This document shows positions 500 to 17,579 of a DNA stretch of 17,779 nt, one piece after another. Location of the stretch: the IMG/VR virus record IMGVR_UViG_2698536449_000001. One strand, 5' to 3'. The notes under the pieces are model-generated. The model was not told the DNA's origin, did not search any database, and saw only the letters and a list, made by a program, of their open reading frames with translations. The stretch is from a virus. Its lineage: Duplodnaviria; Heunggongvirae; Uroviricota; Caudoviricetes. The number at the start of each line of letters is the position of its first letter. Position 1 is the stretch's first letter. The translations under genes and the position numbers were made by a program.

Positions 500-1171
500 T
501 CAGCGACCAATCACCACAACCTGACCACCGTCCCCTTCGTCTGCCGTGCTGATCTCCTGAGATACCACACGTGACCCCACGCGCATTTCACCATACAGAA
601 CAGGCATAACATTGCCCTGGGCAACCATGTTATCCAGTGAGGAGAAATAGGTGTTCTGCTTACCGTTATCCGTTGTCTGTGTGCGGGGAGTTCTGGCTTT
701 CGGTGCCAGCATCTGAGCCACACCGCCGAGCACCATACTGGCACCGAGAGAAAACAGAATGCCGGTCATACCACCGGCACCAATGGCAGCCCCCCATGCT
801 GCAAGGGTGGCTCCGGCGGTAAAGAATGATCCGGCAATGGCGGCTGCTCCCAGGACAATCTGGAATACACCACCTGACTTGGCCCCGGCGACTCTGGGAA
901 CAATATGAATCACAGCGCCGTCAGGCAGAGCCTCATGTAACTGTGCCGTTAATCCGGACGTGCTAACATCCTGCCCGGCAATACGCACCTGATACCAGCC
1001 GTCGCTCAGCTTCTGACGAAACGCAGGGAGCTGTGTGGCCATCGCCCGGATGGCTTCGGCACCCGTTTTCACACGAAGGTCGATGCGGCGGCCAAATCGT
1101 TGCAAATCCCCGTAAAGGCAGATGCGTGCCATGCCCGGTGACGCCAGAGGGAGTGTGTGCGTCGCTGCCAT
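500..1171 (-). CDS. I: Tail tip assembly protein I
   Basis: 223-aa ORF (MAATHTLPLASPGMARICLYGDLQRFGRRIDLRVK...) with the length and sequence of lambda gpI from memory. Its start overlaps the 3' end of K by 103 nt in another frame, as in lambda. Confidence 0.92.
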   Translation of the reverse strand: MAATHTLPLASPGMARICLYGDLQRFGRRIDLRVKTGAEAIRAMATQLPAFRQKLSDGWYQVRIAGQDVSTSGLTAQLHEALPDGAVIHIVPRVAGAKSGGVFQIVLGAAAIAGSFFTAGATLAAWGAAIGAGGMTGILFSLGASMVLGGVAQMLAPKARTPRTQTTDNGKQNTYFSSLDNMVAQGNVMPVLYGEMRVGSRVVSQEISTADEGDGGQVVVIGR

Positions 1172-1617
1172 TTGTCGGTATACCTCTCTCGTTTGCTCAG
1201 TTGTTCAGGAATATGGTGCAGCAGCCCGCCGTCACCGCAGTAAATGGCGGCATGATTCGGCACCGATGAACCAAAACAGCACAGCAGCACATCGCCCGGC
1301 TGCGCCGCTGACAACGGCACCTGATACAGCCCTGTGGCCTCCAGATTATCCAGATAGAGATTCTGACCGTGACGCCACCAGTCATCCTCACGATGAAAAT
1401 CCGGCATCTCAATCCCCGCCAGATGGTAAGCATCCCGGAACAGCGTGTAACAGTCCGTCACCCCGTGCTCAAAGCGCCGCCCGGTAAGATGTGGCACACA
1501 GCGGAACTTGTGAATCGCCCCCCGGCAGACCAGCCACCACGGCAAATCACTCTGCACCTGCAGCCGCCGGTCGGCCTCACTCAGCCAGGGCAGACCACCG
1601 GGGTGGCTGTGGACCAG
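1069..1617 (-). CDS. K: Tail tip assembly protein K, 3' segment (codons ~66-247: JAMM motif onward plus NlpC/P60-like region), cut at the ambiguous base at 1618
   Basis: In-frame translation LVHSHPGGLPWLSEAD...TDCYTLFRDAYH...AAASTFV* ending at the stop at 1069-1071. The HxHx7Sx2D JAMM motif is visible. In the ORF track this segment is fused across the n at 1618 to I codons 1-26 from the duplicated block. Confidence 0.8.
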   Translation of the reverse strand: MVHSHPGGLPWLSEADRRLQVQSDLPWWLVCRGAIHKFRCVPHLTGRRFEHGVTDCYTLFRDAYHLAGIEMPDFHREDDWWRHGQNLYLDNLEATGLYQVPLSAAQPGDVLLCCFGSSVPNHAAIYCGDGGLLHHIPEQLSKRERYTDKWQRRTHSLWRHRAWHASAFTGICNDLAAASTFV

Positions 1618-1618
1618 N

Positions 1619-2302
1619 CCAAATCGTTGTAAATCCCCGTAAAGGCAGATGCGCGCCATGCCCGGTGACGCCAGAGGGAGTGTGTGCGTCGCTGCCATTT
1701 GTCGGTGTACCTCTCTCGTTTGCTCAGTTGTTCAGGAATATGGTGCAGCAGCCCGCCGTCACCGCAGTAAATGGCGGCATGATTCGGCACCGATGAACCA
1801 AAACAGCACAGCAGCACATCGCCCGGCTGTGCCTCTGTCAGTGCGACACGGTAAAAACCCGTCACCTCCATATTGTCAAGATAGAGATTCTGACCGTTAC
1901 GCCACCAGTCATCCCCGCGATGAAAATCCGGCATCTCAATCCCTGCCAGATGATAAGCATCCCGGAACAGCGTGTAACAGTCCGTCACCCCGTGCTCAAA
2001 GCGCCGCCCGGTGAGATGCGGCACACAGCGGAACTTGTGAATCGCCCCCCGGCAGACCAGCCACCACGGCAAATCACTCTGCACCTGCAGCCGCCGGTCG
2101 GCCTCACTCAGCCAGGGCAGACCACCGGGGTGGCTGTGGACCAGTGCCACAATCTCACCCTGCATCTCTGCCTGCAGCCAGTCTTCCGGCGACATACGGA
2201 AATACGCCTCCGGCTCACCGGAGATATTCACGCAGGGGAAATATCTTTCCCCCTCCGGCGTTCTTACCACGAAGCCGCACGACTCCGCTGGAGCACATCG
2301 CC
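1619..2302 (-). repeat. Divergent duplicate copy of an internal K/I segment (K codons ~13-239 plus the overlapping start of I), bounded by n at 1618 and the N-run at 2303-2334
   Basis: About 527 bp at 1090-1617 recurs at 1618-2144 with scattered substitutions, and about 165 bp at 2140-2302 recurs at 2345-2516. Translation gives RCAPAESCGFVVRTPEGERYFPCVNISGEPEAYFRMSPEDWLQAEMQGEIVALVHSHPGG...IYNDL. A second I start (MAATHTLPLASPGMARICLYGDLQRF) is present at 1698. Confidence 0.85.
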
Positions 2303-2334
2303 NNNNNNNNNNNNNNNNNNNNNNNNNNNNNNNN
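2303..2334. other. Assembly gap: run of 32 N (a further single n at 1618)
   Basis: Literal n characters in the sequence, both exactly at the junctions of the duplicated K segments. Confidence 0.99.
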
Positions 2335-2547
2335 GGGATGACTGTGGACCAGCGCCACAATCTCACCCTGCATTTGTGCCCGCAGCCAGTCCTCCGGAGC
2401 CATCCGGAACCGTTCCTCCGGCTCACCGGAGATATTCTCGCTGGGAAGATACCTGTCTCCCTCCGGCGTTCTTACCACGAAGCCACACGACTCCGCTGGC
2501 GCACATCGCCGGGCGTGCGCCAGAATCGCTGATTCTGTCTCTGTCAT
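2335..2547 (-). CDS. K: Tail tip assembly protein K, 5' segment (codons 1-71, ending at the LVHSHP JAMM motif where the N-run begins)
   Basis: ATG at 2547-2545 lies 5 nt downstream of the L stop. Translation is MTETESAILAHARRCAPAESCGFVVRTPEGDRYLPSENISGEPEERFRMAPEDWLRAQMQGEIVALVHSHP, then Ns. Confidence 0.8.
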
Positions 2548-12262: not shown

Positions 12263-15943
<3,681 letters not shown>

Positions 15944-15969
<26 letters not shown>

Positions 15970-16489
15970 TCAGCAACCCCGGTATCAGTTCATCCAGCGC
16001 GGCTGCTTTGTTCATGGCTTTGATGATATCCCGTTTCAGGAAATCAACATGTCGGTTTTCCAGTTCCGGAAAACGCCGCTGCACCGACAGGGGGATCCCG
16101 TCGAGAATACTGGCAATTTCACCTGCGATCCGCGACAGCACGAAAGTACAGAATGCGGTTTCCACCACTTCAGCGGAGTCTCTGGCATTTTTCAGCTCCT
16201 GTGCGTCGGCCTGCGCACGCGTAAGTCGATGGCGTTCGTACTCAATAGTCCCTGGCTGGAGATCTGTCTCGCTGGCCTGCCGCAGTTCTTCAACTTCCCG
16301 GCGCAGCTTTTCGTTCTCAATTTCAGCATCCCTTTCGGCATACCATCTTATAACGGCGGCAGAGTCATAAAGCACCTCATTACCCTTGCCACCGCCTCGC
16401 AGAACGGGCATTCCCTGTTCCTGCCAGTTCTGAATGGTACGGATACTCGCACCGAAAATGTCAGCCAGCTGCTTTTTGTTGACTTCCAT
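15944..16489 (-). CDS. Nu1: Terminase small subunit Nu1
   Basis: 181-aa ORF (MEVNKKQLADIFGASIRTIQNWQEQGMPVLRGGGKGNEVLYDSAAV...) matching lambda gpNu1, with an N-terminal helix-turn-helix. Lies immediately downstream of cos on the minus strand. Confidence 0.95.
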
Positions 16490-16513
16490 TGTTCATTCCA
16501 CGGACAAAAACAG

Positions 16514-16626
16514 AGAAAGGAAACGACAGAGGCCAAAAAGCCCGTTTTCAGCACCTGTCGTTTCCTTTCTTTTCAGGGGGTGTTTTAAATAAAAACATTA
16601 GGTTACGGCGAAGAAGAACGGAAACG
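16514..16626 (-). promoter_or_regulatory. cosB: three Nu1-binding R elements (core CGTTTCC) between cosN and the Nu1 start
   Basis: agaaaggaaacgacag at 16514-16529, ctgtcgtttccttt at 16556-16569 (opposite orientation) and cgaagaagaacggaaacg at 16609-16626. Arrangement and sequences match my recollection of lambda cosB R1/R2/R3. Confidence 0.7.
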
Positions 16627-16666
16627 CCTTAAACCGGAAAATTGTCATAAATAGCGAAAACCCGCG

Positions 16667-16678
16667 CGCCTTCCGCCC
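16667..16678 (-). other. cosN cohesive-end 12-mer (minus strand GGGCGGAAGGCG), a variant of lambda GGGCGGCGACCT
   Basis: Flanks are identical to lambda as I remember it: CGACAGGTTACG on the right-end side and CGCGGGTTTTCGCTATTTATG on the Nu1 side. Only the second hexamer of the 12-mer differs. Confidence 0.75.
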
Positions 16679-16702
16679 CGTAACCTGTCGGATCGCCGGA
16701 AA

Positions 16703-16709
16703 GGACCCG
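16703..16709 (-). other. Candidate cosQ (minus strand CGGGTCC), about 25-30 bp from cosN
   Basis: Minus strand reads TTTGCGGGTCCTTTCCGG here. Placement is from my memory of lambda cosQ; exact boundaries are unverified. Confidence 0.4.
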
Positions 16710-16877: not shown

Positions 16878-17111
16878 ATGTCAACGAAGAACAGAACCCG
16901 CAGAACAACAACCCGCAACATCCGCTTTCCTAACCAAATGATTGAACAAATTAACATCGCTCTTGTTCAAAAAGGGTCCGGGAATTTCTCAGCCTGGGTC
17001 ATTGAAGCCTGCCGCCGGAGACTGTGCTCAGAAAAAAGAGTTTCGCCTGAAGCAAACAAAGAAAAGAGTGACATTACTGAATTGCTCAGAAAACAGGTTA
17101 GACCAGATTGA
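16878..17111 (+). CDS. Small basic ribbon-helix-helix-like protein; resembles YlcI/YnfO (DUF3950) proteins of E. coli lambdoid prophages
   Basis: 77-aa ORF with an Arg/Thr-rich N-terminus (MSTKNRTRRTTTRNIRFP), then a short beta-strand-like RNIRFP and two predicted helices (NQMIEQINIALVQKG, NFSAWVIEACRRRL). Weak AGGG Shine-Dalgarno 7 nt upstream. Family assignment is from memory. Confidence 0.6.
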   Translation: MSTKNRTRRTTTRNIRFPNQMIEQINIALVQKGSGNFSAWVIEACRRRLCSEKRVSPEANKEKSDITELLRKQVRPD

Positions 17112-17168
17112 AGCAATTTAGATAATCGTGCAGACTACGCCCCCTCATATCACATGGAAGGTACTACA

Positions 17169-17579
17169 ATGGCTCAGGTTGCCATTTTTAAACAAATATT
17201 CGATAAAGTGCGAAATAATTTAAACTATCACTGGTTTTATTCTGAACTAAAACGTCACAATGTCTCACATTACATTTACTATTTAGCCACAGAGAATATT
17301 CATCTTGTTCTTGAAAACGATAATACGGTTTTAATAAAAGGACAGGGTAAGGTTGTAAATGTAAGATTTTCAAAAAATAAATGCCTTATAGAAGCCACCT
17401 TAAAAGGATTCAAATCAGGAGAGTTATCATTTTACGAATACAGGAAAAATCTTGCTACAGCAGGGGTTTTCAGATGGATTACAAATATCCACGAAAACAA
17501 AAGGTATTACTATACCTTTGATAATTCATTACTCTTTACTGAGAACATACAGAACACTACACAAATATTTCCGCACTAA
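17169..17579 (+). CDS. Hypothetical AT-rich accessory protein (136 aa from the second ATG); possibly YbcV/YdfO-like (DUF1398), unverified
   Basis: ORF-track entry 17154..17579. The ATG at 17169 has a GGAAGG Shine-Dalgarno 7 nt upstream, so I prefer it. Roughly one-third G+C by eye, against clearly GC-richer structural genes. Same strand as, and 42-57 bp downstream of, the RHH-like gene. Confidence 0.5.

Follow-up and report, generated by a model that had tools for sequence, protein, structure and literature searches.

The question raised by this locus is what has become of a lambda-type cos site whose cohesive-end sequence departs from that of phage lambda at five of twelve bases. The window, that is, the whole stretch of DNA analysed (17,779 nucleotides of the IMG/VR virus record IMGVR_UViG_2698536449_000001), had been read earlier from its letters alone. 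That sequence-only reading located the changes in the second hexamer of the minus-strand 12-mer, where five of the six bases differ, described the flanks, the cosB R elements and Nu1/A as lambda-like, and proposed a cos variant with altered cohesive ends, a packaging-defective prophage or a sequencing artefact. Alignment to the lambda record PV340536.1 (locus L004, from the phage collection) bore out the description. The minus strand from 16678 to 16667 reads GGGCGGAAGGCG, bounded by ...TCCGACAGGTTACG and CGCGGGTTTTCGC..., and the lambda record has GGGCGGCGACCT inside identical flanks, exactly the 12-mer that the sequence-only reading had given for lambda. The mismatches fall at positions 7, 8, 9, 10 and 12 only, while positions 1-6 and the C at position 11 (C11) are unchanged. 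The nick-site context is ...TTACG/GGGCGGAAGGCG/CGCGGG..., with CG kept on both sides. The features of the site and of the adjoining terminase genes are as follows.

16667..16678, minus strand: cosN cohesive-end 12-mer GGGCGGAAGGCG (sequence and lambda alignment)
16678-16673, minus strand: cosN positions 1-6, GGGCGG, identical to lambda (sequence)
16672-16667, minus strand: cosN positions 7-12, AAGGCG as against CGACCT in lambda (sequence)
16679..16680, minus strand: conserved CG dinucleotide just 5' of the top-strand nick (sequence)
16665..16666, minus strand: conserved CG just 3' of position 12, adjoining the bottom-strand nick (sequence)
16702..16708, minus strand: cosQ, GGGTCCT, the packaging-termination signal, identical to lambda (alignment)
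16609..16626, minus strand: R3-like Nu1 binding element of cosB, CGTTTCCGTTCTTCTTCG, the same as lambda bp 53-70 (alignment; boundaries by lambda homology)
16559..16574, minus strand: R2-like element of cosB, inverted, GAAAAGAAAGGAAACG, identical to lambda (alignment)
16511..16525, minus strand: R1-like element of cosB, CGTTTCCTTTCTCTG, identical to lambda (alignment)
15944..16489, minus strand: Nu1, the terminase small subunit, 181 aa, 98.3% identical to lambda (K48R, A75T, L132I)
14044..15969, minus strand: A, the terminase large subunit with the cosN nuclease, 641 aa, 99.4% identical to lambda (T151S, D185E, L404R, T466I)

The GGGTCCT heptamer is the one that, from established knowledge of lambda, we take to be cosQ, and the boundaries of R2 and R1 were likewise set by homology to lambda. 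Between cosQ and cosN the alignment is free of gaps and the spacing is that of lambda. From cosN to the start of Nu1 there are no indels relative to lambda, and R3, R2 and R1 stand at the lambda distances. The minus strand from 16708 to 16511 is a complete lambda-type cos, and a stagger of 12 bp would follow, as the unchanged spacing implies.

The distribution of the differences was evaluated first against the nearest lambda-type relatives (L075 and L023), from which the window differs at 5 of the 12 cosN bases and at 6 of 308 flanking bases (Fisher p = 1.2e-5). The figures for the comparison with lambda were 5 of 12 and 17 of 308 (p = 5.6e-4). The concentration of differences in cosN is more than chance. 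The nearly identical background that had been noted earlier has to be qualified in one respect, in that across the population the spacer between cosQ and cosN is polymorphic as well. Variability was assessed with a flank-only pattern, TACG-N12-CGCGGGTTTTCGCTAT, which recovered 131 loci from IMG/VR and the species-representative genomes (GTDB); the pattern itself fixes positions -4 to -1 and +13 to +28 and is uninformative there. The lambda 12-mer was present at 125 of these loci, the AAGGCG variant at 4 (about 3%), and GGGCGGCGACCG and GGGCGACGACCT at one each. Positions 1-5 and 11 were invariant among the 131 loci and position 6 was changed once, GGGCGG being kept in 130. In the same set cosQ was nearly invariant: positions -29 to -26 and -24 never change, and -30 and -25 change in fewer than 1% of the sites. 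The spacer was variable, with minor-allele frequencies of 8-20% at -5, -7 to -11 and -17. This segment (16683-16695 on the minus strand, positions -5 to -17) has more than 20 haplotypes across lambda-like cos sites. The TTCC adjoining cosQ is nearly invariant, with change reaching about 5% at -20.

The earlier reading had called this concentration of change unexpected, a judgement that the published work on lambda does not sustain. Feiss, Min, Sultana, Patel and Sippy (PLoS One 2015, PMC4669245), whose paper also underlies the naming of the GGGTCCT heptamer as cosQ, found that lambda-like phages commonly differ from one another at bp 7-12, that changes in this right half do not measurably affect cos cleavage, and that "Maintenance of bp positions 7-12 is not" under selection. 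The asymmetry between the halves was attributed to Nu1 bound at R3, which anchors gpA beside the right half. At both nicks the adjoining CG pairs were highly conserved, and cosQ was also conserved. Lambda terminase used the cosN sites of lambda and N15 equally well, and lambda and N15-hybrid terminases displayed no cosN specificity in the experiments. Virion ends mismatched at 2 of 12 positions still cyclised, at an approximately 4-fold lower yield, and both alleles segregated among the progeny. The G2C change lowered the yield about 10-fold, whereas the symmetric C11G had no phenotype. Right-half mutations made earlier by Xu and Feiss (1991, as cited in PMC4669245) were also of minimal effect. 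Those engineered lambda mutants resemble the window in being changed at positions 7-12, with cleavage and phage yield essentially unaffected, and differ in being individual laboratory base changes (C11G, for example) rather than a natural block of five. They provide the mechanistic basis on which AAGGCG is read as functional. The published tolerance data comprise single and double changes and the N15 allele, which has two differences, as against five of six bases in AAGGCG. The pattern in the window, in which everything is kept save positions 7-12, is what the model of that study predicts.

The 12-mer is thus very probably a functional cosN, at which a lambda-type terminase would nick at the usual positions and leave predicted 5' overhangs of GGGCGGAAGGCG at the left end of the virion DNA and CGCCTTCCGCCC at the right end. 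In the proposed mechanism, Nu1 would bind R3, R2 and R1 of cosB and thereby set gpA at a fixed distance, and gpA would make two nicks 12 bp apart. The nick far from cosB would rely on cosN positions 1-6 and the adjoining CG, all of which are kept in the window. The cosB-side nick would be placed by the Nu1-R3 anchor and be largely indifferent to bases 7-12, so that those six bases could change without loss of cutting. Since both virion ends come from one duplex site, changed ends would stay self-complementary automatically. The calculated nearest-neighbour melting temperature of the overhang duplex is 46.3°C, compared with 47.8°C for lambda, and the G+C content is 10 of 12 in both; the variant ends should anneal to one another about as stably as those of lambda do, and should fail to pair with lambda ends at 5 of the 12 positions. 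Efficient cutting of the AAGGCG allele by lambda-type gpA is inferred from its distribution. The sequence, the distribution, the independence of flank and terminase and the spectrum of alleles come from the present analysis, and right-half tolerance and anchoring from published experiments.

The distribution was determined with a 40-base query centred on the variant, using megablast with a 28-base exact word, so that a lambda-type cosN could not seed a match. Of 5,426 complete E. coli genomes, at least 158 (about 3%) matched the variant, at 153 chromosomal places and at 16 places on plasmid records of about 46-68 kb. Two matches were found in the phage collection, PhiR46_1 (host field E. coli ECOR13) and YDC107_1 (Ravinvirus, N15-like). 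The 12-mer was exactly GGGCGGAAGGCG in every fetched record. A minimal-flank scan for the variant gave 86 IMG/VR contigs. The full tally is 87 loci, nearly all of them IMG/VR viral contigs, and takes in four E. coli or phage-collection records and one contig of a GTDB species representative, Escherichia sp. E1V33. Variant-bearing E. coli genomes usually hold one such site, and strains hold up to 13 lambda-like cos regions. The proposal of a cos variant with altered cohesive ends was therefore upheld in the form of a widespread natural allele. AAGGCG is an ordinary natural allele.

Some records met in these searches call for separate comment. Phage-plasmids of about 46 kb of the N15-like Ravinvirus group, such as pAH01-1 (NZ_CP055252.1, locus L005) and YDC107_1 (L003), carry lambda-type Nu1, A and cosB together with AAGGCG, and are without N15's own terminase, its simple cosB and its CGTCCG allele. 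The lambda-type packaging genes in these elements indicate that the packaging module has been exchanged between lambda-like prophages and phage-plasmids. A literature search found no publication describing PhiR46_1 or the PV3405xx phage set, and the viability of PhiR46_1 is judged from the 'host' field of its record only. A search of the literature for the exact 12-mer and its complement found no mention of either as a phage feature, the matches being unrelated (Ginkgo, Streptomyces). An exact lambda-type cos, 12-mer and flanks included, was also present in the assemblies of Raphidiopsis brookii D9, Aeromicrobium sp. PE09-221 and Archangium violaceum Cb vi76 and in a plasmid of Alicyclobacillus fastidiosus (loci L134-L137 in all); these four most likely represent contamination by lambda, cosmid or fosmid vectors or control DNA.

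The possibility was considered that the changed hexamer kills cosN and that the window belongs to a decaying, packaging-defective prophage. The five changes do lie where the nicks are made, and K is disrupted or duplicated in this prophage. However, decay would be expected to be random, yet the identical 12-mer recurs in the at least 158 E. coli genomes and the 87 loci, in association with varied cosB types and flanks. Deposited phage genomes have it, as do phage-plasmids, which need packaging to spread. The remaining cos subsites and the terminase genes are intact, and published mutagenesis shows that the right half tolerates change (PMC4669245). When the lambda proteins were compared with the window by tblastn, Nu1, A, W, B, C/Nu3, D, E and FI were full-length, free of stops and 94-100% identical, and the same was true of FII, Z, U, V, G, T, H, M, L and I; J extends past the end of the window. 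A dead cosN is accordingly very improbable, and the suggestion of a packaging-defective prophage found no support as regards cos and the terminase, given the wide conservation of the 12-mer and the intact cos subsites, Nu1, A, W, B, C, D, E and FI.

The tail-tip gene K is the exception among these genes. It is expanded and rearranged (1072-2547, minus strand), and lambda K is found there in three overlapping pieces.

2547-2335, minus strand: K residues 1-71
2300-1620, minus strand: K residues 14-240
1620-1072, minus strand: K residues 65-247, the frame changing at 1620

Direct repeats lie within the region, 1092-1391 with 1619-1918 (92%) and 2127-2302 with 2335-2510 (86%). All three pieces fall on one locus of about 885 bp in the complete E. 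coli genomes listed as best matches. The expanded arrangement was not found among the complete E. coli genome matches listed, none of which exceeded 95.6% identity. The expansion, of about 735 bp, appears to be unique to the window, and reflects either recombination between diverged K genes or an error of assembly. This prophage may be unable to build tails, and hence infectious particles, through K, for a reason unrelated to cos. On the other side of cos, two small genes lie upstream on the opposite strand (16878-17111 and 17154-17579, plus strand); by position they are the counterparts of two genes of the nearest E. coli prophage (strain 582), which are annotated as encoding YlcI/YnfO family and DUF1398 proteins.

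The state of K is also relevant to a second possibility, that the 12-mer is spurious, a product of sequencing or assembling across packaged ends, such as mis-joined or poorly polished termini. The cos site forms the physical ends of virion DNA and can be mis-assembled, and the K arrangement, unmatched in the complete E. coli genomes listed, could itself be a mis-assembly. However, the identical sequence lies within integrated prophages of many independent complete chromosomes from different laboratories, as well as in IMG/VR contigs and in Escherichia sp. E1V33. An artefact, moreover, would not give rise to a single discrete allele accompanied by neighbours one step away. The artefact that had been suggested from the sequence is on this evidence hardly credible.

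The possibility was also considered that the nuclease co-evolved with its target and shifted in specificity, a situation like that of lambda and phage 21 but located at cosN. Such a cluster of five changes in a nuclease target could point to a corresponding change in the nuclease, and two of the four gpA substitutions in the window (L404R and T466I) lie in the C-terminal nuclease half. The comparison drew on 641-aa gpA proteins, 44 of them from carriers of the variant and 38 from lambda-type carriers, with an identity to lambda gpA of 97% or more throughout. No column had disjoint residues between the alleles, either in this set or in a smaller one of 7 against 37. Three gpA sequences were exactly common to both alleles, the gpA of some variant carriers was 100% identical to that of lambda, and several Nu1 sequences were common to two or three alleles. 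T466I was tried as a marker of the allele; it seemed associated in the small sample, yet was present with both alleles there, and position 466 was absent from the residues most associated with the allele in the larger set. The occurrence of identical gpA and Nu1 with both alleles indicates that the terminase has not changed to match, and no matching change in the large subunit is needed for the AAGGCG allele. These comparisons, together with the lack of cosN specificity in lambda and N15-hybrid terminases (PMC4669245), make a co-evolved nuclease very improbable.

The flanks gave a similar picture. The AAGGCG allele was seen with about 25 haplotypes on the cosQ side and with cosB sequences of at least three unrelated kinds, and several cosB/Nu1 types carry the variant 12-mer. 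Furthermore, the lambda allele and the variant are both found on one and the same flank haplotype: several loci of lambda type agree with the window in all 120 bases of the left flank and in about 181 of the 188 on the right. The allele is independent of flank and terminase type.

The spectrum of natural alleles at positions 7-12 was then tabulated from three further scans, which excluded the lambda allele and held GGGCGG fixed, together with the earlier loci. At least 14 alleles were found.

CGACCT: at least 127 loci; lambda, a count not comparable with those of the other alleles
AAGGCG: 87 loci; the variant in the window
CGTCCG: 64 loci; N15
CAGCGG: 22 loci
CGTCCT: 14 loci
AGACCT: 7 loci
CAGGCG: 4 loci; one step from AAGGCG
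CAGACG: 3 loci
GAGCGT: 3 loci
AAGGCT: 1 locus; one step from AAGGCG
AAGCGT, AGACCG, CGACCG and CTGACG: 1 locus each

Several early ideas about the allele were rejected. From the flank-only sample it had seemed that there were no intermediates between the lambda allele and the variant, a view overturned by the targeted scans, which found the one-step neighbours. The idea that C11 was kept because it is critical for nicking was discarded, since C11G is without phenotype (PMC4669245) and the natural alleles CAGCGG, GAGCGT and AAGCGT have G at position 11. Neither a simple inversion nor a reverse-complement swap, as judged by eye, converts CGACCT to AAGGCG.

Compared with known cos systems, the site has the cosQ-cosN-cosB architecture of lambda, with cosQ, GGGCGG, the CG pairs at the nicks and R3, R2 and R1 identical; it differs in having AAGGCG in place of CGACCT, and the predicted overhangs of the two are not complementary. 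The cosN of N15 and phiD326 (GGGCGGCGTCCG) is likewise a natural right-half allele with GGGCGG intact, and has G at position 12 as in the window. The N15 record annotates its first 12 bases as a sticky end unlike that of lambda. Only positions 9 and 12 of that allele differ from lambda (PMC4669245), compared with five in the window, and N15 has a diverged terminase (TerL about 65% identical to lambda, PMC4669245) and a simple cosB, whereas the terminase and cosB of the window are essentially those of lambda. The cosN of the Salmonella phage Gifsy-1 is also a natural right-half variant, with bp 8, 9 and 11 changed relative to lambda (PMC4669245); by the published description it has three differences rather than five, with positions 7, 10 and 12 as in lambda. 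The polymorphism as such has already been described and explained. AAGGCG itself is unusually divergent, with five differences as against at most three in the natural alleles named in that study (PMC4669245).

Full neutrality of positions 7-12 might be predicted to leave more scatter than the two alleles that dominate among lambda-type sites of E. coli. One explanation would be that AAGGCG is maintained as a cohesive-end compatibility type, a barrier to end-joining with lambda-type chromosomes. Mixed concatemers, tandem polylysogens or cos-bearing satellites would then give rise to chromosomes whose ends do not anneal and which would be lost. The alleles at lambda-type cos sites of E. coli are strongly bimodal (125-126 lambda-type and 4 variant among 131), a mismatch at 2 of 12 positions already lowers the viable yield about 4-fold (PMC4669245), so that 5 of 12 should be much worse, and variant genomes usually hold one such site though strains reach 13 lambda-like cos regions. 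However, bimodality is also expected from common descent and recombination, one-step intermediates exist, and the free reassortment of the allele with flanks and terminases indicates that exchange around cos continues. Shared ancestry and recombination could be the simple cause of the dominance of two alleles, and maintenance as a barrier is an unlikely, if conceivable, addition. If it were true, the carriers would be partly isolated from, or protected against, co-resident lambdoid elements, though their terminase would cut both types.

The preferred reading, a functional cosN that is one natural allele among many, carries little general biological weight, and has mainly practical consequences. 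The ends of the carriers will not anneal to lambda ends, which bears on cos-ligation assays and on cosmid or in vitro packaging. Terminus-finding software keyed on GGGCGGCGACCT would be affected, and annotation that expects the lambda 12-mer misses cos sites in roughly 3% of E. coli genomes. For the lambda-like phages themselves, the at least 14 alleles amount to a natural mutagenesis table for positions 7-12, in which AAGGCG is a further, and so far the most divergent, natural example of a cosB-proximal half of cosN that is free to vary.
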